A stretch of DNA of 64,000 nucleotides. Origin: Candidatus Taylorbacteria bacterium RIFCSPLOWO2_12_FULL_43_20 (GTDB lineage: Bacteria > Patescibacteriota > Minisyncoccia > Phycocordibacterales > HO2-43-120). This document shows positions 3,878 to 63,466 of this stretch, piece after piece (position 1 is the stretch's first letter; the number at the start of each line of letters is the position of its first letter). The DNA is taken from the NCBI GenBank assembly GCA_001821295.1, contig MHSK01000017.1, positions 31-64,030 of the forward strand, written 5' to 3'. A model generated the notes under the pieces. It saw only the letters and a list, made by a program, of their open reading frames with translations. It was not told the DNA's origin and did no database searches. Made by a program: the position numbers and the translations under genes.

Positions 3878-3962
3878 CCTTTTGATGTGATTCCCGCTTT
3901 CCCCCCTTCGCTCTAAGAAGAGCTACTGGAGGGCGCAGCGCGGGAATGATAGATGAGAAATG
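3878..3962. repeat. MITE-like palindromic repeat (CCCCTTCGCTCTAAGAAGAGCTAC / GCGGGAATGA family)
   Basis: The motif ccccttcgctctaagaagagctac..gcgcagcgcgggaatga recurs at 31700-31760 and 44590-44650. Confidence 0.5.
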
Positions 3963-4022
3963 ATTTGAATAAGCAGAAAAAAAACCGCTCGCTGGGAACG
4001 GTTGTGAAAACGCAAATTGAGA

Positions 4023-5384: not shown

Positions 5385-5530
5385 CTACTTGCCTGCCGAA
5401 ATGTCCAAAATTCTGCTGCAAATTGCGTATTTCTCGTCAGCGTACCTCGGTATGCTTCCTCAAAATCCGCAATTTTCGCAAAGAATTTTGAACATTTCAG
5501 TTAGCCATTAGATTGTAGATAGCCTCTAAA
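5385..5530 (+). repeat. conserved ~140-bp intergenic leader repeat (copy 1 of 3)
   Basis: ctgccgaaatgtccaaaattctgctgcaaattgcgtatttctcgtcagcgtacctcggtatgcttcctcaaaatccgcaattttcgcaaagaattttgaacatttc..ccattagat is near-identical to 29140-29265 and partially to 28313-28365, each immediately 5' of a plus-strand gene start. Confidence 0.7.
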
Positions 5531-7269: not shown

Positions 7270-7402
7270 TTAACTTAGGACTTACGCAGTTGGATGCAGT
7301 TCGAGGCGCAAGCGAGTATTGCGACCAAAATGTATGGACTTATACATTGCGGGAGCAAACGGAGCTTGCAACGAAGAAATGCGCCGACTGCGTAAGTCAT
7401 AT
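7270..7402. mobile_element. MITE-like element with GGACTTACG...CGTAAGTCC terminal inverted repeats (family 1, copy 1)
   Basis: About 125 bp with perfect TIRs gacttacgcagt...actgcgtaagtc, about 93% identical to 25775-25897. A right-end fragment also occurs at 57225-57275. Confidence 0.65.
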
Positions 7403-13985: not shown

Positions 13986-15221
13986 CTAAACAGTGAACAT
14001 CCCCTCTTTGTATATGATTTTTTTGTCCCCGTTTTTCATATAAGCGGTAACCGTGCGAGGAGCAGTGGAAATAATATCGGTATGTACTGACGAATCATTA
14101 TACCCCAAACGTTCCCAATCTTCAGGCGACAGCTCGCCGGGATCACCGATGTAGCAGTCGTGGTACGACTTTCCAAGCGCCAGATGCGTATTACCGTCGG
14201 GCCCTCCGATGTTCTCATCAAACAAAGTCTCCGCCATAAATTTAGTAATTCTGGAAAAACGCTTATCCGTGAGCGAATATTCCCCTATTTTGTCAGCGTG
14301 CTCCGTTTTTATCATCTCTCGGAGGACATTTTCATTCTTAGAGGCGTTGGCTTTCACCACTCGCCCGTTCTTAAACTCCAGACGTATTCCCTCTATCAAT
14401 ACTCCATAGCGGTAAAGCGGTTGGTTGAACTTGATCCAGCCCTCCGTCCCCCGCCAGTCGGGCGACGTAAAAAGCTCAAAACTCGGAATGTTTCTTCCAG
14501 ATCCGCCCATCCAAGCGCGCTTATCTCCCAGATTGACCCAAAGGTCGGCATCCGGACCTAGAACATGCAGTTTGTCTATCGGCATCCGGTTCAAACGACC
14601 TCTTATTTTCTCCAATCCTTTATACAGCTTTTTCCATTCAGAAATGGGATTTTTTTTATCAAGAAGACACGCTTTAATGATTTGATCCCAATACTCCTCG
14701 AGGCCAAGTCTCGCCTCTTTTGCCATTGCCTCTGTGCCATACAATCCCAACGTCCAGGTATATTTGCCTTTGTTTTCTTTCGCGTTCCTCCAGTCCATAT
14801 ACGGCTTCCAAGCCAATCCTCTTCGCATTATTTTTTTCGGATTTATGCCTTCCAATTCATGTTTATCAATCTCACTAAGTATAAAAATCGTATGATCAAT
14901 TTCATCCACTAAACCTCTGGCAAATTTCTCCGGAAAAAAATCCAGCTGATGATCTTTTGCGTGTTCAAAAAAATCTCTATCAAACGGAAACCTATCGCCG
15001 CTATCGGGGCGGTAATCCCCGATCACATGCCCACCCGCTTTTAATATCGCGACCTTAAGTTCCCTGTATAGCGGCTTGGCTGCCTCATAGGCCACAAGGT
15101 GCACCACTTCACCTTTCTTTACTCCCCTGCCTCCGCCGAGAGCGAAATTGACGAGCACGTCGGCGTATTTTTCCAAAATTTTTTTTGACAGCGTATAACT
15201 CATTAAATCATGATACAACAA
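13986..15221 (-). CDS. M29-family aminopeptidase (AmpS/PepS-like)
   Basis: 411 aa. LVNFALGGGRGVKKGEVVHLVAYEAAKPLYRELKVAILKAGGHV and overall similarity to thermophilic-metalloprotease M29 aminopeptidases. Confidence 0.6.
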   Translation of the reverse strand: MLYHDLMSYTLSKKILEKYADVLVNFALGGGRGVKKGEVVHLVAYEAAKPLYRELKVAILKAGGHVIGDYRPDSGDRFPFDRDFFEHAKDHQLDFFPEKFARGLVDEIDHTIFILSEIDKHELEGINPKKIMRRGLAWKPYMDWRNAKENKGKYTWTLGLYGTEAMAKEARLGLEEYWDQIIKACLLDKKNPISEWKKLYKGLEKIRGRLNRMPIDKLHVLGPDADLWVNLGDKRAWMGGSGRNIPSFELFTSPDWRGTEGWIKFNQPLYRYGVLIEGIRLEFKNGRVVKANASKNENVLREMIKTEHADKIGEYSLTDKRFSRITKFMAETLFDENIGGPDGNTHLALGKSYHDCYIGDPGELSPEDWERLGYNDSSVHTDIISTAPRTVTAYMKNGDKKIIYKEGMFTV

Positions 15222-15279
15222 ACACGAGCCGAAGCAACCACATCAAGGTTAAACCTTGATATTATATGTACCGAGAAAA

Positions 15280-15423
15280 GTAACTGCTCACAAGACCGAG
15301 TGGTGTCATTCCCGCGAAGGCGGGAATCTAGGCCATATTTTGATCTGGATTCCCGTTTTCACGGGAATGACAGAAGAAAAGAAGGCTGTGGTGTGGCCAT
15401 TACTCGGTCTTGTGAGGAGTTAC
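15280..15423. mobile_element. MITE-A, full copy (TIR GTAACTSCTCACAAGACCGAGT; 8-bp TSD CGAGAAAA)
   Basis: TIRs flank two inverted gtcattcccgcgaa(a/g)gcgggaat hairpins. The flanking 8-mers cgagaaaa at 15272-15279 and 15424-15431 are identical. Spurious track ORFs 15210..15497 and 15256..15438 are translations of this element. Confidence 0.75.
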
Positions 15424-15506
15424 CGAGAAAATCATTGACAACTTTGTTTTTCTTTGTTATTATAACTGCAGATTTTCAGAGACGATTGTTCGCATGAAGC
15501 GACGAT

Positions 15507-17467: not shown

Positions 17468-17615
17468 ATAGGACTTACGCGTTTCGTCATAATTTAAAAC
17501 ATTTCCCATCTATCATTCCCACTTTCTTCTGTCATTCCCGCGAAAGCGGGAATCCAGTGTATGCAGATAAAAACCTGGATTCCCGCTTTCGCGGGAATGA
17601 CACCACTCGGGGTTG
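17468..17615. mobile_element. chimeric MITE-like element (family-1 left TIR, double GTCATTCCCGCGAAAGCGGGAAT hairpin core, MITE-A-like right end)
   Basis: ataggacttacgcg...tgtcattcccgcgaaagcgggaatccag..ctggattcccgctttcgcgggaatgacaccactcgggg. Confidence 0.55.
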
Positions 17616-17627
17616 TGGACAGATGCT

Positions 17628-17990
17628 TTATTGCGGTTTTACTCTTGGTACACCTATGGTTTTATCGTCCGATATTCCAAAATCCTTCCTTATGAACTCT
17701 ACTATTCCCCATATTGAAACCATGATAAATAATGCTATTATACCCCCCGTCATTATTCTTTTACCTCTTGCTTTGGCCTCCTCGCTTCCCGACAAAAAAA
17801 TGTATTTAGCCACCCCCCAGAAAAAAACCAAGAGGGCAACTGCAAATACTATAGTGGTTAATTTACCAACAAGATTTCCGAATTGCGGAATCAGTGTGCC
17901 CAGTAAGGGCAGGTCGCGAGCATCATTCTGTGCGAAAACGAACACAGGAGATATTAGAGCAAGTGTAATTAATATACAAACTTTTTTCAT
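17628..17990 (-). CDS. TrbC/VirB2-like (T4SS-pilin-like) small secreted two-helix protein, paralog 1 of 7
   Basis: Signal peptide, then LLVFFWGVAKYIFLSGSEEAKARGKRIMTGGIIALFIMVSIWGIVEFI, which is the hairpin core shared by the array. Confidence 0.6.
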   Translation of the reverse strand: MKKVCILITLALISPVFVFAQNDARDLPLLGTLIPQFGNLVGKLTTIVFAVALLVFFWGVAKYIFLSGSEEAKARGKRIMTGGIIALFIMVSIWGIVEFIRKDFGISDDKTIGVPRVKPQ

Positions 17991-18044
17991 TTTTTGCGTA
18001 TTTTAACACAAAAACCGCGCAAGGCGGTTTTTGTTAGTTGTAAC

Positions 18045-18311
18045 CTAGAATCCCAGATAACTCGGCAAAGGAATTCCGAAGCTGTTCAAAACAATTCTGA
18101 TAAGAGCATAAACAACCATCATCACGAACAACCCTTTTATTCCCCAATCCATAGCCGACTTGCCTTTTTGCCGCCCCTCCTCGCTTGCCGAATGCGCAAT
18201 AAACTGCAAAATACCCCAGAAAAAAACCAGAAGAGCGACAGTGAACAGGAGAATTATTATCGGATTCAGTATATACTGATTAATCCGATTTAATAGCGGC
18301 TCTATGGTCAT
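18045..18311 (-). CDS. TrbC/VirB2-like pilin paralog 2 of 7 (short N-terminus)
   Basis: LLVFFWGILQFIAHSASEEGRQKGKSAMDWGIKGLFVMMVVYALIRIV. Confidence 0.55.
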   Translation of the reverse strand: MTIEPLLNRINQYILNPIIILLFTVALLVFFWGILQFIAHSASEEGRQKGKSAMDWGIKGLFVMMVVYALIRIVLNSFGIPLPSYLGF

Positions 18312-18327
18312 TAGTTAAAACGCAAAA

Positions 18328-18762
18328 CTATCTTATATTTACACCGGGAGCGTTCACATCTTGCGGATCTGTATCAATACCTGTTGCCTCTCCGATAAAT
18401 GTCACAATACCCCAGATTGCCGACATTATAAACAGAGCTATTATACCGCCAATCATTATTCTCCTGCCTTCCGCTTTAGCCTCTTCGCTTCCAGCGGCCA
18501 AAATGTATTTTGCGAGCCCCCAGAAAAAGACGAGAAGCGCGATAGCAAAGACGACAGGTATCAATGTGTCAACAATTTCTCCGAATGAAGTAGCCAACCG
18601 TTGTAAATTGGATAAATCCTGAGCCAATGCAAGCGCGGGCGTTAATAATACTGCACTCAATACAAGAACTTTTTTCATTAATATATTTATAGTTATTAAT
18701 AATATATATAGACCTTTTGTCTTAGGACTCGTCCAGAAATAAATTCCTCGGATTGTGTTCAA
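18328..18762 (-). CDS. TrbC/VirB2-like pilin paralog 3 of 7
   Basis: Signal peptide ending ALALAQ, then LLVFFWGLAKYILAAGSEEAKAEGRRIMIGGIIALFIMSAIWGIVTFI. The start may be the internal MKKVLVLSAV. Confidence 0.6.
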   Translation of the reverse strand: MNTIRGIYFWTSPKTKGLYILLITINILMKKVLVLSAVLLTPALALAQDLSNLQRLATSFGEIVDTLIPVVFAIALLVFFWGLAKYILAAGSEEAKAEGRRIMIGGIIALFIMSAIWGIVTFIGEATGIDTDPQDVNAPGVNIR

Positions 18763-19064
18763 TGCGCAGAGAATACGGTCTTCGCGATTGAGAAAAATCT
18801 TGAGGCGTACTCTAAGTACGATGAAAGATTTTGCGATTGAGCGGAGATTGTAGTCTATGATGCAGTGGACGCAAGGCGGGGGAGTTATTTATGAACGAGT
18901 CCTTAGTGTCAATTATACATAATGCCGAGTAGATATAACAAGCTAAACTGTGGATAATATCACGCATATCCCCTCACGGGGTAACTAGATCATTCATGGC
19001 TTTGAATATGGGTCAATAATTGCAATTACCCCATCAAGGGATACACGTGGATAATATAGCCGGA

Positions 19065-19502
19065 TCAATAATCAGCGCGGTAGCGAATGGGAAGATCTTG
19101 CCTGACCGGCTGACCGAAAATATCAGACTGAAGAAATTTAACAATCCCCCAGATTGAAGCCATGCAAAATAGAGCGATTACTCCCCATGTAAGAATTCTT
19201 CTGCCTTCCGCTTTTCCCTCATCGCTATCCGCGTGATAAAGATATCTCACCCCCCGCCAAAAGAAAAACAAGAGCCCCATGCTAAAAGCTATGGGTATCA
19301 AAAGGTCAACATTAAAAGCAGTGAAGAGCTTGATGAGATCCTGCAATGAATTCACGCCGAACGTCCCTTGGGCAAGCGCGACCGCAGGCACAACAAACGC
19401 CACGAGACCAGCCGCAAACCCCGCAAATTTAATTTTTTTATTCTTGTTACTTTTCATAAATTTTTCCGACCTACTCGGGTAAAAGCGGTAATCCGAAGTC
19501 AA
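19065..19502 (-). CDS. TrbC/VirB2-like pilin paralog 4 of 7
   Basis: Signal peptide AVALAQ, then LFFFWRGVRYLYHADSDEGKAEGRRILTWGVIALFCMASIWGIVKFL. Confidence 0.6.
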   Translation of the reverse strand: MTSDYRFYPSRSEKFMKSNKNKKIKFAGFAAGLVAFVVPAVALAQGTFGVNSLQDLIKLFTAFNVDLLIPIAFSMGLLFFFWRGVRYLYHADSDEGKAEGRRILTWGVIALFCMASIWGIVKFLQSDIFGQPVRQDLPIRYRADY

Positions 19503-19905
19503 AGCCGAATCCTCGAGCCAAAATTTCCATAATCGCCCAAATGGAAAACATAACGAAAAGCCCGATAATCCCCCATTTCATTATCATCTTGCCGTCAGCC
19601 ACTTTCTCCTCGCTGCCCGAGCCCATGATAAACATTGATAACCCCCATATGAAAGCCAAGAGAGCGCTCGTCGCCACGTATGGAATGGCCAAATCAACAA
19701 TCTCAACCGATATGCATATAAAGTCAACAAAATTCTGCGGCGGCTTGACACACGGTCCAAACACGGTCTGCGCTGAAGTGGCCGGCCCCGTTTGATAGGA
19801 AGGTCTATTGGCTACTTGGGCTCCTATATAGCCGGGCACGGCATATACGGCAAGCATAAGTGACAAAATGAATATTGGGAAAACCCTTTTGATTTTGAAA
19901 GTCAT
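19471..19905 (-). CDS. TrbC/VirB2-like pilin paralog 5 of 7
   Basis: LLAFIWGLSMFIMGSGSEEKVADGKMIMKWGIIGLFVMFSIWAIMEIL. Overlaps its neighbours by 32 and 4 nt (tight operon). Confidence 0.6.
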   Translation of the reverse strand: MTFKIKRVFPIFILSLMLAVYAVPGYIGAQVANRPSYQTGPATSAQTVFGPCVKPPQNFVDFICISVEIVDLAIPYVATSALLAFIWGLSMFIMGSGSEEKVADGKMIMKWGIIGLFVMFSIWAIMEILARGFGFDFGLPLLPE

Positions 19906-20333
19906 TTTTTTGCGATAGATTCCCGATCTATCATAATATTATATGCCGGTTTTGAAATCTGTTTTATTGTCCGTTCAATGCCCTCGGCGATAACCCAAGC
20001 GCCAAGCAAAATTGCCGTGCCTATCAAGGTATACAAAAACGTCGTTTTGGCCTTCTTCAACCGCTCCTCATTGCCCCCGGCTGTAACCATGAGAAAACCG
20101 GAGTAAATGACAAAAAAGACGGCCAGAACAGCGCCTATAGGCAAGACCACTTCATTTATAATGAGCTTAATGAGAGCGTAGAGATCGCATCCCCCTTTAA
20201 GCGGGTTGGGTATTCCTTCAGATCCCGCCGGAGGACACCCTGACGAACCTGAACCTTGAATGGCTTGCGCTCCCGAGACCAAAGGTATAGACAGAGCGGC
20301 AATCATCAAAAATATAAGCAAGGATTTTTTCAT
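19902..20333 (-). CDS. TrbC/VirB2-like pilin paralog 6 of 7 (canonical subtype)
   Basis: Signal peptide LVSGAQA, then AVFFVIYSGFLMVTAGGNEERLKKAKTTFLYTLIGTAILLGAWVIAEGI, matching the small-pilin pattern xGxxxxTAGGxxxxxxKAKxxIxxxxIGxxxxxxAW that I recall being annotated as T4SS pilin in CPR genomes. Confidence 0.65.
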   Translation of the reverse strand: MKKSLLIFLMIAALSIPLVSGAQAIQGSGSSGCPPAGSEGIPNPLKGGCDLYALIKLIINEVVLPIGAVLAVFFVIYSGFLMVTAGGNEERLKKAKTTFLYTLIGTAILLGAWVIAEGIERTIKQISKPAYNIMIDRESIAKK

Positions 20334-20394: not shown

Positions 20395-20455
20395 CCGTTC
20401 CCATCTGTCATTCCCGCGAAAGCGGGAATGACAGGGAGCGCGGGAATGACATCAT
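20395..20455. repeat. double-hairpin repeat fragment (GTCATTCCCGCGAAAGCGGGAATGACA x2)
   Basis: tgtcattcccgcgaaagcgggaatgacagggagcgcgggaatgacatc, lying between pilin paralogs 6 and 7. Confidence 0.6.
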
Positions 20456-20890: not shown

Positions 20891-22198
20891 TTAATTCTGG
20901 AGCATTGCTCCTATCTCTTGAGACGCCCTCAAGACAGCATCTGATATTTTCGATCTGCCCGCCGAGACATCTTCTACCATGTTCTCGAAGACGGCGTTGG
21001 TCCTAAGCCCATCAGGATCAAGCCACGACTTGGAAATTATGGCGGAATCATAAAAAATGCTTAAGTCAGGATCATCCGGCTTGTCTCTGAGCAGATCACG
21101 ACGAAGAGGGGGCAAAGCGGCATTTTCTGAAAACATGGAAGCGAAGTCCTTTCCCGCTAAGACTACCAAAGTGCTGAAGGTGCCGGAAATATCAGAAGAA
21201 GATTTTAATATCGCCAGCGAATAGACACGTGCGCTCGTCACATTGACCTTGGCGTCTTGAAGCTGAGGAAAAACGGCAACATCAAAATTTAAATTCGGAT
21301 TTTTCAAACGTATTTCCGCTAATTCGCTCGCGTAACCGAAATAAACGGCAAGGTCTCCAGCTATAAATCGCTGTTGGGATTCAGGTAAGGATCTATTCCA
21401 AGAATAAGATGCTTTATTGGGGTTGGAAAAATCTGTAAAAAAAGCGATGACAGACTGAGCAGGGTCAACCCCTCCCTGTCTTCCTTTGTTCAAAACACTC
21501 CTGTACTCCCCTCCCACCTCTTCCACTATGGGCGTGCCGGCTTGAAAAAAAAGTGCTGAGAGAATACCTTTGGCATTGCGGACATTGGAAAATTCCCCCA
21601 GTGCCACAGCGCTTCTCGTAATATTGCCGACGCTATCTTTACGCGACAAGCTCTCGGACAATGTGAAAAATTCGGTCCAATAGCGCGGCGGCTCCGCTAT
21701 GCCCTCGCTGGCAAAAATGTCCTTATTCCAATACATGACCAAAGGATCGGCGTATAACGGAAAACCCAGCGATCCCTTTTCCACTAGAAATATTTCGGCG
21801 GCATCAGCGTAAAGATCTTTATAATCCCTTAGCGACAAGCTTTCGAAAGAAACAGGGTAAATTTTATCCGCGTGCTTCACGATAAAATCCTCGGGCAAAA
21901 TTACGGCATCAGGACCCTTACCGCTCGCCAGCGCCTCTATAAGATCGCTTTCAAACTCTCCTTTTCTTTTCTCCACATATGTTACGTTAAGCTGACCCTC
22001 CTTCTTCGTCCTCTGGAGGTTCAAAGCGCCGTAAGCGACATCAAAAGATCTTTTCGGAGCCGTTCCCCATATAGTTACTTCGGGAAAAATCACTTCGGAG
22101 CCCGACCTGACAGTGGAAAAAACTATAACGCCCACCACTATAAAAAAAGCAAATGCCCCCACCAGAATTATTTGAAAAGAGTTTGTTTTATTATCCAT
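20891..22198 (-). CDS. putative extracellular solute-binding protein (ABC-type, family-1-like), membrane-anchored
   Basis: 435 aa with an N-terminal TM helix and the size and aromatic-rich pattern of periplasmic binding proteins. Heads the same-strand block containing the pilin array. The assignment is tentative. Confidence 0.4.
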   Translation of the reverse strand: MDNKTNSFQIILVGAFAFFIVVGVIVFSTVRSGSEVIFPEVTIWGTAPKRSFDVAYGALNLQRTKKEGQLNVTYVEKRKGEFESDLIEALASGKGPDAVILPEDFIVKHADKIYPVSFESLSLRDYKDLYADAAEIFLVEKGSLGFPLYADPLVMYWNKDIFASEGIAEPPRYWTEFFTLSESLSRKDSVGNITRSAVALGEFSNVRNAKGILSALFFQAGTPIVEEVGGEYRSVLNKGRQGGVDPAQSVIAFFTDFSNPNKASYSWNRSLPESQQRFIAGDLAVYFGYASELAEIRLKNPNLNFDVAVFPQLQDAKVNVTSARVYSLAILKSSSDISGTFSTLVVLAGKDFASMFSENAALPPLRRDLLRDKPDDPDLSIFYDSAIISKSWLDPDGLRTNAVFENMVEDVSAGRSKISDAVLRASQEIGAMLQN

Positions 22199-22204
22199 AT
22201 CATT

Positions 22205-22330
22205 ATAGGACTTACGTGTTTGATGTCATTCCCGCGAATGCGGGAATCCAGAGTATGCAGATAGATCCTAGATTCCCGCTTTCGCGGGAATGACAGAAGA
22301 AAGCGGGAATGACATCAAACGCGTAAGTAC
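22205..22330. mobile_element. MITE-like element with GTACTTACGCGTTTGATGTCATTCCCGC TIRs and a double-hairpin core
   Basis: ataggacttacgtgtttgatgtcattcccgcgaatgcgggaatccag..tagattcccgctttcgcgggaatgacag..gggaatgacatcaaacgcgtaagtact. Confidence 0.65.
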
Positions 22331-22340
22331 TATTATTATC

Positions 22341-25774: not shown

Positions 25775-25897
25775 ATTGTAGGACTTACGCAGTTGGATGC
25801 AGTTCGAGGCGCGAGCGAGGATTGCGACCAAAATGTATGCTTATACATTGCGGGAGCAAACGGGGCTTGCAGAGAAGAAATGCGCCGACTGCGTAAG
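25775..25897. mobile_element. MITE-like element family 1, copy 2 (GGACTTACGCAGT...ACTGCGTAAGT TIRs)
   Basis: About 93% identical to 7270-7402. Spurious track ORF 25797..26054 starts inside it. Confidence 0.65.
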
Positions 25898-25909
25898 TTC
25901 TATTAATGT

Positions 25910-26673: not shown

Positions 26674-26790
26674 GTATCTACTCACAAACCCGAGTGATGT
26701 CATTCCCGTAAAAACAGGAATCCAGCAAGTATTTTGATCTGGATTCCAGCCTGCGCGAGAATGACGCCACTCAAACTTGTGAGTAAATAC
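26674..26790. mobile_element. MITE-A variant copy (TIR GTATCTACTCACAAACCCGAGTG / CACTCAAACTTGTGAGTAAATAC)
   Basis: Degenerate hairpins gtcattcccgtaaaaacaggaatccag..ctggattccagcctgcgcgagaatgac. No clean TSD. Confidence 0.5.
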
Positions 26791-28255: not shown

Positions 28256-28361
28256 CTAGGCCAAAATACAGCCATAATTAAACACATTTCCGGCCAAAGG
28301 GAGGGTTTGGACGGAAAGAATTTTGAACATCTCGGCTAGCCATTAGATAATGGATGGGCTC

Positions 28362-28955
28362 TTAGTTGAAATCAGTCATCGCTTTTTCTTTTCCCTCCAT
28401 GATTATCGCGGCAACCGCCTCGGCGGATTTTTTTGCCTGTTTTTCCAAAAGTTTCAAATCATCGGCTTTAAGCTGTTTGAGAATATAGTTGTTTATTTTA
28501 TCTTCGCCATGCGGTTTTTTTGCCCTCCCCTTCTTGTCAGCTGGCGAGATGCCGACCCTTATTCTCATAAACTTTTCGGTGCCGAGTGCCCTCATGACGC
28601 TCTCTACGCCTTTGTGACCACCCGAGCTTTTATTGTAAGATACTTTGATCTTATCAAGGGATAAATCCAAATCATCGTGAATAATGACGGTTCTCTCCAG
28701 CTCTCCCGCGCTTGAAATTACTCCCTTCATGCTATTGCCGGATTTGTTCATGAAAGTTTCTGGCATAACGACAAGGACATCTTTGCCCTTAGCCAGCGAC
28801 CCTTTGGATATAAGCGCGTTCATTCTCTTATCGTATGCAAATGCGGCGAAATTATTTTTTTTTCTGAAAATTTCAGCGACTATCCTTCCCGCGTTATGTC
28901 TGGTTTTTTCATATTCAGGTCCTGGGTTTCCCAGCCCAACGATTATGTATTTCAT
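28362..28955 (-). CDS. pth: peptidyl-tRNA hydrolase
   Basis: MKYIIVGLGNPGPEYEKTRHNAGRIVAEIF is the Pth N-terminal signature. The track ORF extends to 28979, but the consensus start is the MKYIIVGLGNPG Met. Confidence 0.85.
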   Translation of the reverse strand: MKYIIVGLGNPGPEYEKTRHNAGRIVAEIFRKKNNFAAFAYDKRMNALISKGSLAKGKDVLVVMPETFMNKSGNSMKGVISSAGELERTVIIHDDLDLSLDKIKVSYNKSSGGHKGVESVMRALGTEKFMRIRVGISPADKKGRAKKPHGEDKINNYILKQLKADDLKLLEKQAKKSAEAVAAIIMEGKEKAMTDFN

Positions 28956-29139
28956 GTCAACAATATAACATAAACGCAAAAAATCAGCACAAACAAAACC
29001 ATTCTCTATCTCTGACTGCTTGTGCCGATAAGCAATCCATATTAATATTTAGTTGCGAAATTACCACACCTCTCCTAACAAGACTTGGAGCCCATCCACA
29101 ATCTAACCGCCAGATATAAAGCAAGACATGGCTTGCCTG

Positions 29140-29265
29140 CCGAAATGTCCAAAATTCTGCTGCAAATTGCATATTTCTCGTCAGCGTACCTCGGTATGCT
29201 TCCTCAAAATCCGCAATTTTCGCAAAGAATTTTGAACATTTCGGCTAGTCATTAGATCGTGGATG
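29140..29265 (+). repeat. conserved ~140-bp intergenic leader repeat (copy 2 of 3), overlapping the lepB start
   Basis: Near-identical to 5385-5530. A partial copy at 28313-28365 follows rpsA. Confidence 0.7.
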
Positions 29266-29918
29266 GGCTCTTAAAAAATCATATGAATTTTTTTTCAGAG
29301 AATTCTTCGGCAGAAAACGAAGTTAACGCGGAAGCCGCGGCATTCAAGGAAAAACGAACCCAAAAGAAAGGCGAATCATGGGCAGATCTATTAAAATTCG
29401 CAGTTATCGCTCTCATTATAGTTGTGCCCATAAGAATGTTTATCGCCAAACCGTTTGTCGTAAGCGGCTCTTCAATGGTGCCTACTTTTGAAAACGGCGA
29501 TTATTTGATAGTTGACCAGCTTACATACAAATTTGAAGATCCTGCGCGCGGAGATGTTGTAATTTTCAGATATCCTAATGACAGAACCAAATTTTATATA
29601 AAAAGGATAATAGGATTGCCCGGAGACACGATTAAATCGGAAGATGGCAAAGTAATAATATACAACAAGCATTATCCGGACGGTTTGTTTTTGGACGAGC
29701 CGTACTTGGAAAATATATCGTTAGATAATTTTACAGTCACCTTGCGCGAAAAGTACTTCGTGATGGGCGACAACAGACCGCAAAGCTCCGATTCAAGAGA
29801 ATGGGGTCCGTTGGAAGAGAGTTATATTATAGGCAGACCGGTTTTGCGTCTGCACCCCGTGCAAAATATAAACTTTTTTCCCGGCGAATATCACTTCATA
29901 GATTCACCACAGCAATAA
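29259..29918 (+). CDS. lepB: signal peptidase I
   Basis: VVSGSSMVPTFENGDYLIVD (catalytic Ser region), K of the dyad in YIKRIIGLPGD, and GDNRPQSSDSREWGP (S26 box E). Confidence 0.85.
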   Translation: MDGLLKNHMNFFSENSSAENEVNAEAAAFKEKRTQKKGESWADLLKFAVIALIIVVPIRMFIAKPFVVSGSSMVPTFENGDYLIVDQLTYKFEDPARGDVVIFRYPNDRTKFYIKRIIGLPGDTIKSEDGKVIIYNKHYPDGLFLDEPYLENISLDNFTVTLREKYFVMGDNRPQSSDSREWGPLEESYIIGRPVLRLHPVQNINFFPGEYHFIDSPQQ

Positions 29919-31150: not shown

Positions 31151-31189
31151 ACAACCTTCGTTGTCCTCCCTTCTTCTCCCCATTCGTAT

Positions 31190-31245
31190 TCATCCCCGAC
31201 GTTTCGGTTGGGGCTCCGACCGAAACGTCGGAGTCGTATATTCGT
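31190..31245. repeat. perfect palindrome family 2 (CCGACG(C/T)TTCGGTYGG-N4-CCGACCGAA(A/G)CGTCGG)
   Basis: ccccgacgtttcggttggggctccgaccgaaacgtcggag. Further copies at 56762, 58982, 61778 and 63388. Confidence 0.7.
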
Positions 31246-31649: not shown

Positions 31650-31795
31650 CATAGGACTTATCCGTTTGATGCCGTTTGGCGCCTGCCAAACCATGGATTC
31701 CCGCTTTCCCTCCTTCGCTCTAAGAAGAGCTACGGGAGGGCGTAGCGCGGGAATGACAGATGGAGAATAGTTTAAATAAACGGTATTACGTAAGT
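31650..31795. mobile_element. MITE-like element (GGACTTATCCG...TACGTAAGTCC ends with CCTTCGCTCTAAGAAGAGCTAC core)
   Basis: ataggacttatccgtttgatgccg...ggattcccgctttccctccttcgctctaagaagagctacgggagggcgtagcgcgggaatgacag...attacgtaagtcctgg. Confidence 0.55.
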
Positions 31796-31805
31796 CCTGG
31801 AACAA

Positions 31806-32198
31806 ATGTCTCCATTTTCTGATAATTTTCAAGTGACAAATACAACAAAAGGCAAGCTGCCACGCTTGCCTTTCTTACAAATGAAAAACGCCGTGCTGGG
31901 AAAAAAATATTCATTGAGTTTAGTTTTCACCGACAACAAACTTTCGCGAAAGTTAAATCTAAAATTCAGAAACAAAAATAAGCCGGCGAATATCTTGAGT
32001 TTCGCCCTTGAAAAGAATCTCGGCGAAATTTTTCTTGACTTGACTCAAGTTAGATGCGAAGCGCCTGAATTTGAAAGATCATATACAAATTTCGCCGCGT
32101 TTCTCTTTATCCACGGTCTCATGCATTTGAAAGGTTTCGTGCATAGTAGTAAAATGGAAGATGAAGAAAAGAAAATCCGTTCAAAATTTGGAGTCTGA
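31806..32198 (+). CDS. ybeY: endoribonuclease YbeY (rRNA maturation factor)
   Basis: LVFTDNKLSRKLNLKFRNKNKPANILSFAL and the zinc-binding FLFIHGLMHLKGFVH (HGxLHLxGYDH-type). Confidence 0.75.
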   Translation: MSPFSDNFQVTNTTKGKLPRLPFLQMKNAVLGKKYSLSLVFTDNKLSRKLNLKFRNKNKPANILSFALEKNLGEIFLDLTQVRCEAPEFERSYTNFAAFLFIHGLMHLKGFVHSSKMEDEEKKIRSKFGV

Positions 32199-33589: not shown

Positions 33590-33800
33590 ACCATCGGGGC
33601 TAGCCCGGAGATATTGAACCTTTGTTTCGTCTTCGCTCGGACGTCGTGAATGATATGAATCATTCACACGCTCCTCGCTAGCCGAAATAAAGGTTCCTCG
33701 GGACGAAGTTACCGAGATATTGAACCTTTGTTTCGTCTTCGCTCGGACGTCGTGAATGATAAGAATCATTCACACGCTCCTCGCTAGCCGAAATAAACGT
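33590..33800 (+). repeat. tandem duplication (2 x ~105 bp) of palindromic repeat family 6 upstream of ftsZ
   Basis: The unit ...accgagatattgaacctttgtttcgtcttcgctcggacgtcgtgaatgatatgaatcattcacacgctcctcgctagccgaaataaaggttc occurs twice head-to-tail. An inverted third copy lies at 12425-12530. Confidence 0.75.
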
Positions 33801-33827
33801 TATTTAGTTATTACAAATATAAAAATG

Positions 33828-36350: not shown

Positions 36351-38477
36351 ATGAACATTATAAGTAATAAATCGGAAAAAAGTTTAAGTAAACGATTAAC
36401 GGTAGTAGTGCTCGGTCTCGCGCTTATAGCATCCGGTTTTGTTGTTCCAGCGAACACTGAAGCTCAAAGTGCTACAAGCGTTCTTGTACAATTTAACCGA
36501 GATTTGACCATGGGCAGTACGGGCACTGACGTAGCCGCCTTACAGACAATCCTGATCGAAAAAGGTTTTCTTAATATTCCTCCAGGTGTGGCGAAGGGAT
36601 ATTTCGGACCTCTTACCAGAAGCGCGCTAGCGAGGTACCAGGCCTCTGTAGGCATTATGCCGTCAGTAGGATATTTCGGACCGATTACCAAAGCGCACTT
36701 TAACTCTATGGCGGGAGTTACTCCCCAGGTCCCAGGATGTCCTCCGGGAGCAATATTCAATTTCTTGACAGGCGCGCGATGCGACGCTGTTCAAGTTCCG
36801 GGTTGCCCGCCGGGAGCGATATTCAACTTCCTGACGGGTGTAAGATGCGACTTGGCAAGTCCGTCCCCTTCCCCTTCGCCAACGCCTGATGGTGATGGTG
36901 ATGATGATGATGAGTTAAGTGGCGGTGCGGGATCAATATCCAGCTATAAACTTATCTCTGCCCTAAACAACGAAAGAGTCGGGGAAGATGAAAAAGATGT
37001 AAATATCGCCGGCTTAGAGATTGAAGCATCCCAAGGATCAGATATTGAAATTAGCGCGATACGACTCGTATTTGATGGGGGCACAGCAACAAGCGATTTT
37101 GACAGATATGCGGATGACGTTTCAATCTGGCTTGACGGTGAAGAAGTGGCTAGAGTAGATGCCAGTGAATTTGACGACGACAATGACTGGAGCTCTACCG
37201 TGACATTAGACAGAGGAGCAATTATCCGTAGAGGCGATAAAGGAGAAGTCATTGTGGCAATTTCAGGCATCAGGAATCTAGACTCGGCAGATGAAGGAGA
37301 CACCTGGACGGTAGATTTCAGAAGTGTGAGATTCAGAGACGCTCAAGGAGCAACCATCAGTGAAGATCCGGGTACCGCAGTAAGAACATTGTCTTTTGAG
37401 TCGTTCGCGGCGGCGCGTAACGCGGAGCTAAGAATCAGAGCCGATGATGATAGTATTAATCAAGAAAGAGTGATTGACGTGCACGCGACAGACGACACGG
37501 ACAACGTAGCCATAACATCCTTTACTCTTGAGGCAAGAGGAAATTCTGACTTAGAGATCACAAAATTCGGAGTGAACGTTGATGTTACAGGTGCGGCTCA
37601 CGTAGATGATGCTATCTCTGCAATATACCTTTGGATAGACGGTGAAAGAGTGGCTACAGGAGTCGCGTTTGACGATGCCGACGGGGTAAATGTGGGACAG
37701 GATGAAGATTACCTATTTGACGACATTGACTTCATCATAGAAGCCGGCGATACGGTTAACGCTGAAATAAGAGTGGACTTTAATTCAACAGCCGGCGATC
37801 TTGATGAAGGCGATACTATTATGGTAACTCTTGGGGAGACCGAAACGGACCAGGCAAATCTGGTAGACGTGGAGGATGAGTCGGGTACGCAACTTCAAGA
37901 TGCCGATATAAGCGGACAAGTTACCGCGGGACCGCATTCACTGTTTGCCGCCGGTATAAATGTTACGTTTGTAAGCTCAAACGCGACAACAGACGGAGCG
38001 TCCGCGGGAACGGCAACCGGAGATGATACGGGAATCTATGAAATTGTCTTTGACGTAACATCATTCGGTGACGATGTCTTCATTGACGGAGACGTAATTG
38101 CTTCCACCACCGCAAATGCCATAGTAGCCGGAGCGGACGGTATAATCTGGGGAACAACCACAAATTCCAGCGCTACGACGACATTTGACAGCATAGTATC
38201 CTTTGCGATTCTTGAAGCGGAAGGGTTTGAAGGATCCAGTAGTTCAGCTCCCGACGTGACAACAACCGGCGCTCTATCTTACGGAGTTCCGGAGGGAGAA
38301 ACCCGCAGATTCAAACTCAAGATAAATCTCGGTCCTGTTACGGGAGACGTCCAAGCGGGCATAAGGTTGCGTGGCATCAGCTGGGACACAGACAGCGGTG
38401 ATACTCATGACAATCTATACAACTTTAATCTTGGACGATTCAGGACAGATACAATATTCTTGAATCAACAAGATTAA
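36351..38477 (+). CDS. large secreted acidic surface protein with peptidoglycan-binding (PG_binding_1-like) domain and tandem PGCPPGAIFNFLTGxRCD repeats
   Basis: Signal peptide, then GSTGTDVAALQTILIEKGF...GYFGPLTRSALARYQ (PGBD-like). Two 63-bp tandem units at 36727-36852 encode VPGCPPGAIFNFLTG(A/V)RCD. An SPSPSPSPTPDGDGDDDDE linker precedes an approximately 500-aa D/E/T/G-rich domain. Confidence 0.6.
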   Translation: MNIISNKSEKSLSKRLTVVVLGLALIASGFVVPANTEAQSATSVLVQFNRDLTMGSTGTDVAALQTILIEKGFLNIPPGVAKGYFGPLTRSALARYQASVGIMPSVGYFGPITKAHFNSMAGVTPQVPGCPPGAIFNFLTGARCDAVQVPGCPPGAIFNFLTGVRCDLASPSPSPSPTPDGDGDDDDELSGGAGSISSYKLISALNNERVGEDEKDVNIAGLEIEASQGSDIEISAIRLVFDGGTATSDFDRYADDVSIWLDGEEVARVDASEFDDDNDWSSTVTLDRGAIIRRGDKGEVIVAISGIRNLDSADEGDTWTVDFRSVRFRDAQGATISEDPGTAVRTLSFESFAAARNAELRIRADDDSINQERVIDVHATDDTDNVAITSFTLEARGNSDLEITKFGVNVDVTGAAHVDDAISAIYLWIDGERVATGVAFDDADGVNVGQDEDYLFDDIDFIIEAGDTVNAEIRVDFNSTAGDLDEGDTIMVTLGETETDQANLVDVEDESGTQLQDADISGQVTAGPHSLFAAGINVTFVSSNATTDGASAGTATGDDTGIYEIVFDVTSFGDDVFIDGDVIASTTANAIVAGADGIIWGTTTNSSATTTFDSIVSFAILEAEGFEGSSSSAPDVTTTGALSYGVPEGETRRFKLKINLGPVTGDVQAGIRLRGISWDTDSGDTHDNLYNFNLGRFRTDTIFLNQQD

Positions 38478-38521
38478 ACGATCAGCTAAGGCAAAAAAGA
38501 ACAGCAAGATAGAAAAACACA

Positions 38522-38556
38522 AAGAACCCCCTCAAGGGGGTTCTTTGTGTTTTTCT
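38522..38556 (+). terminator. rho-independent terminator (agaaccccctcaagggggttct + T-run)
   Basis: 9-bp G/C-rich stem followed by ttgtgtttttc, 45 bp after the stop of the 36351..38477 gene. Confidence 0.75.
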
Positions 38557-38756
38557 ATTCTCAGTTAACTTTAATAACTGTGTCGCAAAACATTACACCC
38601 CGCAGTCCCGTCCCTATTCAAACTGTGAAAAGCAAGACCTCCGCCCAACTGACAAAAAAAACAGCGCGTTTGCGCCGTTTGTAAATTTTAAGAGCGGCAC
38701 CACAGACCGTTCCCCATTCGTGTGCGCTTTTCGTTAAGCGGTATCTACTATGATCG

Positions 38757-39401
38757 CTACCTCTCAACGAACATACGTCCAATCCCCCTCCTGACACGAT
38801 TATCGGATGCATATTCCAAAATACACCGTCTTGCATTTCTATATTCAGACGATTGCTGGGATGATAGCGTTCGGCCAAATTCTTCTTCTGCCAACACTAC
38901 GGATTGGATATTGTAAAATTTGCACCAATAGTATACCCACCGGCAAGTAAGGGATATATCCCATCCCGACACAAAATAGACAACATCAGGCCTGAGCCGT
39001 GCTAGTATATTTTGGTAAAAATGCCTCAGAACAGGCATGCAACGAGGACGGTCATGCCGTTTCGTCAATGATTCCTCGTAGCTTCTTATCCACTGAGCGA
39101 ACTCAGCCAGCGGCACCACAGATTCATTGCGTTCCAGCAGTCTATCCGTAAAATGCTTGGCAGACGGTAATTTCAAATCATAATTGGTATATTCGGCTTC
39201 ACTTACTCCCATGACCATGCATAAAGGTCTTCCGACTCGCTTTGCCACTATTTCTGCTATCTTGTACAACTGTCCCGGTTGTTTGGCCCGCTTCAGCATA
39301 ATTCTCTCTTGCTCCGTCCAATTTTGCTTGTGCATAATTAAGCGTGTGTATGATGTAAAGATCTGGACAAATACTACTACAGCTTGTTGCCGAGTCAACA
39401 C
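38757..39401 (-). CDS. hypothetical protein (possibly a degraded or foreign gene)
   Basis: 214-aa ORF with no recognisable domain, in a compositionally atypical stretch (38.56-39.41 kb) between a terminator and a MITE. Competing short ORFs lie on the plus strand. Confidence 0.25.
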   Translation of the reverse strand: MLTRQQAVVVFVQIFTSYTRLIMHKQNWTEQERIMLKRAKQPGQLYKIAEIVAKRVGRPLCMVMGVSEAEYTNYDLKLPSAKHFTDRLLERNESVVPLAEFAQWIRSYEESLTKRHDRPRCMPVLRHFYQNILARLRPDVVYFVSGWDISLTCRWVYYWCKFYNIQSVVLAEEEFGRTLSSQQSSEYRNARRCILEYASDNRVRRGIGRMFVER

Positions 39402-39409
39402 ACTTACTT

Positions 39410-39512
39410 GTATCTGCTCACAAGACTGAGTAATCTGCTAACTACAGCCTTCTTTTCTTCTGTCATACCCGCGAAAGCGGGAATGACACCACTCGGCCTT
39501 ATGAGCAGATAC
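39410..39512. mobile_element. MITE-A, short single-hairpin copy (TIR GTATCTGCTCACAAGACTGAGT; 8-bp TSD ACTTACTT)
   Basis: Identical 8-mers acttactt at 39402-39409 and 39513-39520 flank the element. Confidence 0.75.
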
Positions 39513-39720
39513 ACTTACTTCGCGTAAACGAACACACATAAGGATTGCAATCTCCTAACACGCCTACATACGCTCTGTCAAGCACCACCGAGGCTTTGCG
39601 AGGTGAGAAGCGAATACATGGAGCTTCGCAAGACCTTGAGCATTTTGTCTTCAAAATGCGAAAGGTTTACCGCGTCTGTAAGACGGCAGGCGGGGCGTTC
39701 ATCCGTTCCGTTTCCGTTCG

Positions 39721-40065
39721 TGTAAAATTCGAGCGAATGATATAATTAGTTCACCAAGAGAAACATTGGTCGGAAGTAAGAAAGCGGAGCGATTTTGCGG
39801 AAGCCGTTAAGTTCTGTATTGGTGAACTAATTATATCATTCGCTCGAATTTTACACGAGAAAAAAGGATAGCCAACGCGCCAAGCGCGTGGTAACTTGAA
39901 ACTTAATCGTACGCTCCGATTAAACGCCACCGGCCGCCGAGTACGGCGGCTTTGCCTCGCAGAAAATTTTCCTTGCATTTCTGATTTTGCGCGCGCCCGT
40001 CTTTTTTAAAATATGGAAAGGAAATTTTCTGCTCGGCTTCCGCGAAACGTGGTGGCGGCTACATA
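39721..40065. repeat. left boundary repeat of tRNA-Glu-associated cassette (direct-repeat unit A + inverted unit B')
   Basis: 39721-39830 (35-bp IR + 68-bp core, ending TGGTGA) is a direct copy of 42006-42112. 39826-40065 is the reverse complement of 41803-42040. Spurious track ORF 39751..39978 lies inside. Confidence 0.8.
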
Positions 40066-40128
40066 CAATATAGAAAATAGAAAACCCGTGACCATATTTC
40101 AGATCACGGGCGAGATTTTTCTCTCGGA

Positions 40129-40710
40129 TTAGACTTGCAGCTCACCAGTCCAAGGACTCTTGCGCGAAATTACGGCAAACAAGGTACCCGGCGGAAATCC
40201 TTTCTCCTTTGACCCAGGAATGCGCTCGATCTCATGCCTCTGTAATTTCGCCCTCCCATCACCGTCGAGGACGATAGCTAGTGTCCAACCAGGTTTGTCG
40301 CTAGCTTTCGAATGACCTCCAATGGCGACTATTGGGTACTGACAGTGACATTGTTCGTGTACCTTTGTATGCCATTTAGCTGCCCATTGCGCGTATAGTG
40401 CGTTTATCCAAGCATCTGACGCGGGCTTTCCTAGGCCAATGAGTCGGTCATGAGCTTCCTCTTCCTCAACCCAGGAGTTTTGAGAAAAACACAGGAATTG
40501 CACATACCCCATTTCTTTATTACTAACACCGACCCACAATCCCGTTTCCGTGTAGGTTTGCACCTTGTCGATAACTGAGCAGAGTAACTCTTTGGAGTGA
40601 GGTTGAACCAGCGCTTTCCAGAAGCGCTCGTTGGCTCCGTGTTTCCTGGCCAACATTATTAATTGGTGAATGAGACCGATCTCTTTACCGAATTCAGACT
40701 CGCCATTCAT
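40129..40710 (-). CDS. hypothetical protein (cassette cargo; Trp/His/Cys-rich, higher GC than surroundings)
   Basis: 193-aa ORF, divergently oriented from the toxin-antitoxin pair, with no recognisable domain and a codon composition visibly more GC-rich than flanking genes. Confidence 0.5.
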   Translation of the reverse strand: MNGESEFGKEIGLIHQLIMLARKHGANERFWKALVQPHSKELLCSVIDKVQTYTETGLWVGVSNKEMGYVQFLCFSQNSWVEEEEAHDRLIGLGKPASDAWINALYAQWAAKWHTKVHEQCHCQYPIVAIGGHSKASDKPGWTLAIVLDGDGRAKLQRHEIERIPGSKEKGFPPGTLFAVISRKSPWTGELQV

Positions 40711-40905
40711 GGCATGTCCTTTCTCGTTTGTGCCTCGTCGTTTAAGACATGGCGTTTAACTTTTTGCTAGATGACTTGGCCAAAGGTTTCGTCATAGCAG
40801 AGAATTACCAAAGATTTAGCAACTCTCTACTATGACAAAACAGTAAGTGGTTTCAAGGTGCTTTTACTGCCGACAGTGTACACTATATGACTATATATGT
40901 CAAGC

Positions 40906-40935
40906 TTGAATTTTTTCATCGTTTAACCGTTATAT
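40906..40935 (+). promoter_or_regulatory. candidate sigma70-like promoter (TTGAAT-18 nt-TTATAT) and AT-rich palindrome upstream of the antitoxin gene
   Basis: ttgaat tttttcatcgtttaaccg ttatat lies 16 nt before ATG 40952. An upstream imperfect palindrome cactatatgactatatatgtca is a possible operator. Confidence 0.3.
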
Positions 40936-40951
40936 GGTAATATAAACAACA

Positions 40952-41449
40952 ATGGCTAGGATAAACCAAAAAAAATACAAAAACGCCGTTCTTTTCTTTG
41001 CAAGAAAAATTCAGAACGGCACTTTGGGTAAGCTCAAAATGATGAAGCTTCTCTATTTTCTTGATTTTGATTTCTTTGAAAAATTCGGCCGTTCAATCAC
41101 CGGCGATGAATATCTCCGATTTGAAAATGGACCCGTGCCACATATGGGAGAAAAAATCCTCAAGGAGATGAACGGAAAAGAAATCAAAATCACCAAGCGA
41201 AAAGTTGGCGAGGGTTACAATGACCAAATGCATATTGAAGCGTTGGCTGATTTTGACGTAAATGTTTTTGAGAAAGAGGAGCTGCTCATGCTTGAAGAAA
41301 TTGCGAGCAAGTGGGAGAAATTTACTGGATCAGAAATGAAAAATGCCAGTCATGGCGAAGCCCCGTGGATTGCCACGAAACCGGATGATGTAATTGATTA
41401 TAATCTCGCGCTCTATCGGAACAAATACGGAGAGATGGCGAAAGTATGA
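40952..41449 (+). CDS. Panacea-domain (DUF4065, GepA/SocA-like) antitoxin-type protein
   Basis: LGKLKMMKLLYFLDFDFFEKFGRSITGDEYLRFENGPVPHMGEKILKEMNG matches the DUF4065 core pattern (L.KL.KLLYY.....L...G.PLF.E...AW.HGPV). Confidence 0.6.
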   Translation: MARINQKKYKNAVLFFARKIQNGTLGKLKMMKLLYFLDFDFFEKFGRSITGDEYLRFENGPVPHMGEKILKEMNGKEIKITKRKVGEGYNDQMHIEALADFDVNVFEKEELLMLEEIASKWEKFTGSEMKNASHGEAPWIATKPDDVIDYNLALYRNKYGEMAKV

Positions 41450-41459
41450 TTAACTCGCT

Positions 41460-41801
41460 ATGGAACTTTCTCGGCATGACGATCTTGAAAAAGATCTACG
41501 AAATCTAAAACGCTTTCCAACTCCACGAGAATCTTTAGAGGCATGGGAACGCCTCTTTAGTCTGAAAGGACTCCGAGAAACTCCGGGTGTTGACCCATTC
41601 CGAGGATTTGGTAATGCGAAAATTTACAAAGGGCGAGTCGTGCCGTTGAAAGAGAACATGGGAAAGTCAAAAGGTTATCGGGTCATCGTCCAAATAATTT
41701 CCCATGATTGTTTTAAGATTCTCGTATTTTCTCGTCACGGAATTTATCACGACGAGCAAGATTTGATTGATATTGTCAAAGCTCGTTTGATTATTTGTTA
41801 G
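41460..41801 (+). CDS. HigB-like / RelE-ParE superfamily toxin
   Basis: 113 aa. GKSKGYRVIVQIISHDCFKILVFSRHGIYHDE matches the HigB/RelE core (GK..GGYRIIY......I.LL.I..K.E). Starts 11 bp after the Panacea gene. Confidence 0.6.
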   Translation: MELSRHDDLEKDLRNLKRFPTPRESLEAWERLFSLKGLRETPGVDPFRGFGNAKIYKGRVVPLKENMGKSKGYRVIVQIISHDCFKILVFSRHGIYHDEQDLIDIVKARLIIC

Positions 41802-41802
41802 C

Positions 41803-42112
41803 CTCCACCGCGCTTTCGCGCGGAAGCCGAGCAGAAAATTTCCTTTCCATATTTTAAAAAAGACGGGCGCGCGCAAAATCAGAAATGCAAGGAAAATTTT
41901 CTGCGAGGCAAAGCCGCCGTACTCGGCGGCCGGTGGCGTTTAATCGGAGCGTACGATTAAGTTTCAAGTTACCACGCGCTTGGCGCGTTGGCTATCCTTT
42001 TTTCTCGTGTAAAATTCGAGCGAATGATATGATTAGTTCACCAAGAGAAACATTGGTCGGAAGTAAGAAAGCGGAGCGATTTTGCGGAAGCCGTTAAGTT
42101 CTGTATTGGTGA
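41803..42112. repeat. right boundary repeat of cassette (inverted unit B + direct-repeat unit A ending in the tRNA-Glu 3' tail)
   Basis: B begins at the toxin stop codon. Unit A ends tggtga at 42107-42112, which is the reverse complement of the tRNA CCA end plus discriminator. Spurious track ORF 41885..42097 lies inside. Confidence 0.8.
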
Positions 42113-42181
42113 CCCTACCGGGAATCGAACCCGGATTACCGGCTTGAAAAGCCGATGTCCTAACCGTTAGACGATAGGGCC
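42107..42181 (-). tRNA. tRNA-Glu (anticodon UUC), CCA encoded
   Basis: The reverse complement GGCCCTATCGTCTAACGGTTAGGACATCGGCTTTTCAAGCCGGTAATCCGGGTTCGATTCCCGGTAGGGTCACCA folds as a cloverleaf with anticodon loop TTTTCAA. Confidence 0.85.
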
Positions 42182-54338: not shown

Positions 54339-54394
54339 AAACAAAAAACCAAACACTGGTGTTTGGCTTTTTTCAGGAAAAACCGCTTACTCGT

Positions 54395-63440: not shown

Positions 63441-63466
63441 TATTGCTATCAAACGCGTATACACCC

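Follow-up and report, generated by a model that had tools for sequence, protein, structure and literature searches.

MITE-A, a recently active miniature transposon of Candidatus Taylorbacteria with a REP dimer core and probable IS66-family ancestry

MITE-A copies in the window

The window, by which the whole 64-kb stretch of DNA analyzed here is meant, comes from Candidatus Taylorbacteria, a Parcubacteria/CPR lineage of the Rifle aquifer. Its GyrA and LysS match proteins of Candidatus Taylorbacteria bacterium RIFCSP*_FULL_43_* exactly. It has a GC content of about 43% and is about 87% coding, with some 8.5 kb of non-coding sequence. Four copies of a small element bounded by terminal inverted repeats (TIRs), named MITE-A, are found in this window, all of them intergenic (Table 1). 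With a length of 103-144 bp and no coding content, they fit the generic size of a MITE. Copy 1, in an intergenic region between divergent genes, stands 3 bp upstream of a promoter-like site (TTGACA-17-TATTAT), and copy 3 is placed just past the terminator-like hairpin of lysS, with the mraZ promoter region on its other side.

The TIRs of MITE-A are about 22 bp long and follow the pattern GTAWCTSCTCACAAGACYGAGT. When up to three mismatches are allowed, this pattern is matched seven times in the window, against 0.00 matches expected from shuffled sequences, and the matches fall exactly at 15280/15423, 39410/39512, 54195/54338, and 26674. Copies 1 and 3, which are inserted in opposite orientations, are identical at 144 of 144 positions. 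A preliminary description of this DNA had reported three copies with TIRs of about 22 bp and 8-bp target-site duplications (TSDs), and direct reading of the sequence returned exactly the same coordinates and duplications, the latter being perfect and unique in all three intact copies. These 8-mers would have lost their meaning as part of a longer conserved repeat. The bases beyond them differ between the two sides of each insertion and from copy to copy and, since these outer flanks are unrelated, the 8-mers represent target duplications and are not part of any longer repeat. The short variant is found as the same insertion in a related contig (L047).

The fourth copy had already been described as degenerate, and rightly so: both of its TIRs can be recognized, with three mismatches each, and its flanks hold no TSD. 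It is found in the same state in two further loci (L001 and L002). The creation of spurious open reading frames, also foreseen, is seen twice, as an ORF at 15210-15497 that covers copy 1 and as a 97-aa gene called beside copy 3 in public assemblies. The statement that the window lacks a transposase holds for IS66-type genes, the sole type checked (tblastn, best E = 0.03).

Table 1. MITE-A copies, their target-site duplications, and REP-bearing loci in the window
Feature	Position	Strand	Description
MITE-A copy 1	15280-15423	+	144 bp; TIRs 15280-15301 and 15402-15423; REP dimer core 15302-15373
TSD of copy 1	15272-15279 and 15424-15431		CGAGAAAA
Short MITE-A variant (copy 2)	39410-39512	-	103 bp; one REP unit
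TSD of short variant	39402-39409 and 39513-39520		ACTTACTT
MITE-A copy 3	54195-54338	-	144 bp; TSD AAACAAAA at 54187-54194 and 54339-54346
Degenerate MITE-A	26674-26790	+	117 bp; three mismatches in each TIR; hairpins decayed
MITE-A relic	17528-17626	+	REP dimer; decayed right TIR at 17605-17626, left TIR gone
REP dimer locus	22206-22332	+	Dimer at 22222-22295; enclosed by another inverted repeat, TAGKACTTACGYGTTTGATG
Solo REP dimer	55908-55982	+	Between greA and lysS; no MITE-A TIR
Single REP unit and half unit	20404-20451	+	No TIR
Loop-interrupted REP-like hairpin	3889-3972	+	About 32 nt of another repeat inside the loop
Second loop-interrupted REP hairpin	31696-31779	+	Within element 31652-31806, bounded by TAGGACTTA inverted repeats

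The hairpin payload and the solo hairpins

The interior of MITE-A is built from a hairpin that can be searched for as ATTCCC-N8-GGGAAT, which occurs 13 times in the window, against an expected 0.27. The complete unit reads TGTC-ATTCCCGC-GAAA/GAAG-GCGGGAAT-CCA, with an 8-bp stem and a 4-nt loop. All 13 units exhibit the features of CGTC-1 REPs, that is, the tag, a stem starting with AT, the 4-nt loop, the CCA tail, and the arrangement in dimers. Judged by these features, the payload is a CGTC-1-type REP dimer, of the class of Neisseria dRS3. A BLAST search of a plasmid collection additionally gave a match to a Neisseria gonorrhoeae record, with 89.5% identity over 38 nt. The predicted fold of the whole element is very stable (-90 kcal/mol, z = -13), because of its palindromic design.

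Hairpins of this type standing on their own had been grouped as "MITE-B", and they are indeed present at all the loci listed for that group, which is heterogeneous and does not represent one family. The idea that all solo hairpins are decayed MITE-A copies was considered and rejected, as a TIR remnant is found solely in the relic at 17528-17626. This remnant has six mismatches to the TIR, in a comparison where the null never fell below seven, and the internal flanks of the relic are MITE-A-like. No MITE-A TIR was detected at the other three loci with REP dimers or units (22206-22332, 55908-55982, and 20404-20451). The two loop-interrupted hairpins are 88% identical to each other. The insert in their loops is related to sequences at 44588-44623, 31265, 61703, and 61833, forming a nested mosaic of small repeats.

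In total, about 10 hairpin-bearing loci are found in 64 kb, which amounts to roughly one every 6 kb of genome. The density first estimated, one element per 4-5 kb of intergenic space, has to be corrected to one per about 0.9 kb of non-coding sequence.

Other repeats in the window

Besides MITE-A and the REP units, several other repeats are found in the window. A second family, with the inverted-repeat ends TA(T)AGGACTTACGC..., is located at 7276-7400, 25779-25903, 22206-22332, 31652-31806, and 17469-17486. Its cargo is the same REP dimer at 22206-22332 and, between the same inverted repeat (TAGKACTTACGYGTTTGATG), an unrelated sequence in the first two copies, which are 92% alike. The copy at 7276-7400 perhaps has a 5-bp TSD (TAACT), and none is shown by the other copies. 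One end of this family forms, together with a hairpin arm, an outward promoter-like sequence (ATGACA-N16-TATAAT) directed towards the gene at 20891-22198 (minus strand), and a weaker promoter-like end points at lysS. As a lead only, the end of this family resembles the palindrome TATAGGAnTnnnATTTGATT found around Anabaena REP dimers (PMC3733652).

A double palindrome of about 62 nt, consisting of ACTCCGACGCTTCGGTCGGAG followed by CCCCGACCGAAGCGTCGGGG, is present in five copies at 31176-31245, 56756-56825, 58967-59036, 61762-61831, and 63372-63441. The octamer ATACGAAT flanks most of these copies on both sides (exactly in two of them), and is always present on the 3' side. Since it recurs, it belongs to the element or represents a specific target, and is no random TSD.

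Two direct repeats of 108 nt at 39718-39825 and 42005-42112, which are 99% identical, bracket 2.2 kb beside a tRNA gene at 42110-42181 (minus strand). The corresponding region of contig L047 (8587-10183) has a single copy of the 108-nt repeat and different content there, in comparison with 38208-42112 of the window. Identity to L047 is 96-99.8% over the stretch at 38208-39805, in which the short MITE-A variant and its TSD are included, and falls to only about 70% in the flanks. This pattern suggests that the region 38208-42112 is a hot spot of recombination or horizontal transfer. The remaining repeats include a 143-nt pair at 5388-5530 and 29132-29274 (94% identical) with a third, partial copy at 28312-28364, a tandem 88-nt duplication (98%) at 33608-33801, and a 183-nt coding repeat in three diverged copies (62-72%) at 17701-19323, within the region 17557-19502 and near a gene with the Pfam domain T4SS_pilin (19902-20333).

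Empty sites and assembly behavior

Copy 3 is present in all of the 41 contigs selected by their LysS, 21 of which encode the exact protein and 20 a variant with at least 90% identity. The search for empty sites in relatives, proposed as a check on the TSDs, gave no exact one, as every near-identical strain carries the insertion. Across all collected loci no empty junction was found either, and the single match, in locus L008, comes from a 12-nt TIR end that is duplicated together with the TSD. The alleles predicted for the empty sites are TATTATATGTACCGAGAAAATCATTGACAACTTTG for copy 1, ATTGTCCAGCAAAACAAAAAACCAAACACTGG for copy 3, and CCGAGTCAACACACTTACTTCGCGTAAACGAAC for copy 2, and that of copy 1 would hold one copy of the 8-mer, TATTATATGTACCGAGAAAATCATTGACAA. 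In the next relative (L090), with a LysS that is 67% identical, the gene order greA-lysS-mraZ-rsmH is kept, and both the MITE and the REP dimer are absent from the two orthologous intergenic regions, which cannot be aligned. This fits a gain in the Taylorbacteria_43 lineage, without being an exact empty site.

Many public contigs stop inside the MITE (L074-L079 and L086-L089, in the region of 54195-54338), and in scaffold L076 the REP dimer upstream of lysS is interrupted by an N-gap. Repeats of this kind thus fragment CPR assemblies.

The MITE-A family beyond the window

The preliminary description had suggested listing further copies and a possible transposase gene by means of the TIR. In public genomes and metagenomes, such a search gave both a TIR-bounded transposase ORF (L040, described in the next section) and a set of 32 distinct TIR-bounded sites with both flanks present, deduplicated from the window, 12 GTDB loci, and 48 metagenome loci. 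The GTDB scan covered one genome per species and used the 22-nt TIR as query.

Perfect TSDs (8/8) are found at 20 of the 32 sites and 7/8 matches at two more, in agreement with the claim that these are transposase-mobilized MITEs with 8-bp TSDs. When the right flank was shifted by 1-8 nt, no TSD match was obtained at any of the 32 sites. The TSDs of this set are all different and have a GC content of 36%. The 10 sites without TSD are mostly copies with diverged TIRs, which suggests that these are older, and additionally include L007 and L059, the latter with chimeric flanks. The 144-bp subfamily is present at about eight different sites with 97-100% identity, which indicates a recent burst of activity.

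The GTDB matches comprise five 167-bp copies in Parcubacteria group bacterium Greene1014_15, a 144-bp copy identical to that of the window in a Paceibacterota MAG, matches in two Saccharibacteria MAGs, and a 134-bp element with a different cargo in the unclassified MAG bin C13_metabat.bin.52. Between the same TIRs, at least eight unrelated cargos are found in Parcubacteria and Saccharibacteria, each of them a long palindrome. Besides the CPR MAGs and the one unclassified bin, the GTDB species set gave only chance matches in a Desulfobacterota gene. The Desulfobacterota matches to the TIR (L005, L010, L038, L043, L049, and L057) were rejected as MITEs, as they lie inside a conserved coding sequence, interpreted as that of a NodT-like outer-membrane efflux gene (peptide ...SLGLVSSYELDL...). 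The TIR was not found in viral contigs, where the transposase described below has no relative, and the phage collection gave only a 29-nt match to the hairpin. An Rfam search of the window returned nothing but tRNAs above the gathering threshold, with sub-threshold noise on the MITE.

Two individual loci show unusual arrangements. In L008 (6656-6850), a 12-nt TIR end and the 8-bp TSD (GTGAGCAGATAC-AACGAGTG) are duplicated directly upstream of a full 167-bp MITE, an element that may have inserted right beside an older TIR remnant. In L059 (1840-1983), a 144-bp MITE has its left flank from the site GGCATTTG and its right flank from the site TTTTTTAG (compare L019 and L056), the product of either recombination between copies or a chimeric assembly.

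Full-length elements of the IS66 family

An autonomous partner with the same kind of ends had been predicted to exist elsewhere, and elements answering to it were found in CPR contigs as IS66-family elements of 1.43-1.47 kb with homologous TIRs and 8-bp TSDs. The first of them, found by means of the TIR, is a 1471-bp element in L040 (81-1551) with the ends GTATCTGCTCACCATCCCGAGTG and GTATCTGCTCACAAGACCGAGTG. It contains one ORF of 453 aa with the Pfam domain PF03050 (DDE_Tnp_IS66, E = 7.7e-35). Among the candidates scored in a protein search with the transposase, 2469 were homologues with E <= 1e-20, of 426-468 aa (mostly 448-456) and mostly on contigs of about 1.4-2 kb. One of them, from Candidatus Zambryskibacteria, is annotated as a transposase of the IS66 family.

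Five more distinct elements, of 1434-1448 bp, were retrieved by protein alone, independently of the TIR. Their ends follow GTAWC[T/A]NCTCAC....YGAGT and have at most five mismatches to the MITE TIR, while random 75-nt windows never fell below seven. Taken together, the ends of MITE and IS share the consensus GTA.CT.CTCACAA..C.GAGT. All six full-length elements (1434-1471 bp) have a single ORF of 448-456 aa, with no tnpA/tnpB of the canonical IS66, and the stop codon of this ORF falls inside the right TIR. Where both flanks belong to one copy, clean 8-bp TSDs are seen, namely CTTGGACG (L064) and TTTATAAA (L069/L071). The transposases reach 202-211 bits against the NCBIfam model NF033517 (IS66 family), which has a cut-off of 180, and in the plasmid collection the annotated genes nearest to them are those of haloarchaeal ISH10 and of ISNpe25, with about 29-30% identity.

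The homology between MITE and IS is limited to the ends of about 22 bp. The IS TIR closest to that of the window matches it at 21 of 22 positions (L068/L080). The L068 element was considered as a partner from the same organism and rejected, as its flanks cluster with Candidatus Kaiserbacteria and not with Taylorbacteria. Neither the window nor any MITE-bearing locus was found to contain an IS66 transposase. The match to the TIR of ISDge4 and the IS66-family transposases with the same ends are the grounds on which MITE-A can be assigned to the single-ORF (ISBst12-like) branch of this family.

Proposed mechanism and alternative explanations

MITE-A is real and recently active, represents a familiar kind of mobile DNA, and is part of a superfamily, defined by its TIRs, that is widespread in CPR. 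It is very probably a non-autonomous miniature transposon of the IS66 family, of the single-ORF, ISBst12-like lineage, in Candidatus Taylorbacteria. Under the mechanism proposed here, the two TIRs of about 22 bp would be its sole IS-derived parts, with the palindromic REP dimer as cargo between them. A DDE transposase of about 450 aa, supplied by a full-length IS of 1.43-1.47 kb, would bind these TIRs in trans and make staggered cuts 8 bp apart at targets with no strong consensus, giving rise to the 8-bp TSD. The source transposase presumably is, or once was, in this Taylorbacteria genome. In ageing copies, the TSD would disappear first and the TIRs later, finally leaving bare REP dimers, a course that is visible at one locus.

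A wider reading, which is possible and on balance doubtful, is that IS66/ISBst12-type TIR pairs serve as a general palindrome shuttle in CPR, where CGTC REPs would be dispersed as passengers of MITEs and persist bare once the TIRs have decayed. Near-identical TIRs are found in Taylorbacteria, Kaiserbacteria-like genomes, Zambryskibacteria, other Parcubacteria, and Saccharibacteria, and as part of the shuttle reading this distribution would imply horizontal spread among very small genomes.

Among the alternatives to an IS66-family MITE, the one that survives best, improbable as it is, holds that the copies are fixed, immobile relics now exapted as structured elements, such as RNA hairpins, terminators, or promoter-proximal modulators. 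The intergenic position of the copies next to promoter-like or terminator-like sites and the fixation of copy 3 in all sampled strains would agree with such a role, as would the sRNA yielded by the Coxiella analogue QMITE2 (PMC5896051). The stability of the fold also counts in its favor, yet it is a trivial consequence of the palindromic design, and the complete identity of copies 1 and 3, together with the 97-100% identity at about eight sites, argues for very recent movement. Exaptation is compatible with the transposon explanation and not exclusive of it.

TSDs of 8 bp are made by several IS families. MITE-A could accordingly be moved by another DDE family with such duplications (IS6/IS26, IS256, ISL3, or IS1595), the match to IS66 ends being coincidental, and the fact that the partner IS in this genome is inferred, with none in the 64-kb window, leaves some room for this view. 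It is nevertheless quite unlikely, as six distinct IS66-family elements end exactly in the same TIR consensus, five of which were found without using the TIR, the first 11 nt are those of the published TIR of ISDge4 (ISBst12 group), and no other type of transposase lies beside any TIR in about 90 loci.

Slightly less likely still is a spread as REP/REPIN repeats by a RAYT (HUH tyrosine) transposase, in which the outer inverted repeats would simply be part of a larger palindrome. Transposition by HUH/RAYT enzymes makes no TSD, in conflict with the perfect 8-bp duplications at 20 of 32 sites, and the same TIRs also bound REP-free cargos and a DDE transposase gene. It is true that the REP dimer in the core belongs to a recognized superfamily and that the window has solo dimers without MITE-A TIRs; the tag, however, is TGTC and not GTAG, and the CGTC/TGTC class has been reported without a link to RAYT (PMC3733652). 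Finally, an assembly artefact, in which repeat-induced chimeric joins in a MAG would have produced the identical copies, can practically be dismissed: many contigs do end inside the MITE and the two flanks of the element in L059 do come from different sites, but perfect site-specific TSDs cannot come from mis-joins, and the lysS-MITE-mraZ junctions are identical in independent ENA, JGI, NCBI, and Logan assemblies, the same flanks in 21 independent assemblies meaning that the insertion is no artefact.

With the IS66-family reading, a MITE in a CPR genome is now given a concrete transposase family, and genomes of about 1 Mb can be seen to still host a recently active IS/MITE system. It also offers one plausible vehicle for CGTC-type REPs, whose spread is an open question (PMC3733652). 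For the annotation of CPR MAGs, the effects are broken assemblies and spurious ORF calls.

Comparison with known systems

In the literature searched, neither IS66-derived MITEs nor CPR MITEs nor a prior report of these sequences were found, an absence that is no proof of novelty.

CGTC-1 REPs are defined by a CGTC tag that is often TGTC, an 8-bp stem starting with AT, a 4-nt loop, a CCA tail, and their arrangement in dimers (PMC3733652). CGTC REPs have been reported in five phyla, CPR not being among them, and as repeats without a dedicated transposase, in a class not tied to RAYT genes (PMC3733652). The units of the window share with CGTC-1/dRS3 the tag, the stem ATTCCCGC, the loop, and the CCA tail, and mostly form inverted dimers, the difference being that in MITE-A the dimer is enclosed by IS66-type TIRs and accompanied by a TSD.

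In its architecture, MITE-A is most like QMITE2 from Coxiella burnetii, an element of 150-190 bp with TIRs of 23-29 bp, variable direct repeats (7-11 bp), and a core with a REP palindrome (PMC5896051). Its "small" versions have neither TIRs nor direct repeats and resemble plain REPs (PMC5896051). The comparison covers the architecture, in which the two share the TIRs, the REP core, the intergenic location, and the very stable fold; a BLAST search against Coxiella plasmids gave no match. QMITE2 differs from MITE-A in that it belongs to a host of another phylum, its REP is of the GTAG type and an IS1111 target, and its parent IS is unnamed (PMC5896051).

As for the ends, the relevant system is the ISBst12 group of the IS66 family, whose members include ISBst12, haloarchaeal ISH10, and ISDge4 from Deinococcus geothermalis. 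The TIR of ISDge4 is GTAACTGCTCAGCA, its transposase has 449 aa, and its direct repeat, CCTCGATG, is 8 bp long (PMC12898284). The elements of the window are non-coding and merely 103-144 bp long, and the identity of the CPR transposases to those of ISH10 and ISNpe25 reaches only about 29-30%. The ends of MITE-A start with GTAACTGCTCA, equal to ISDge4 over 11 nt, both begin with 5'-GTA(A) and come with 8-bp TSDs, and the CPR relatives of about 1.45 kb carry one ORF of about 450 aa (PF03050, NF033517), as does this group.
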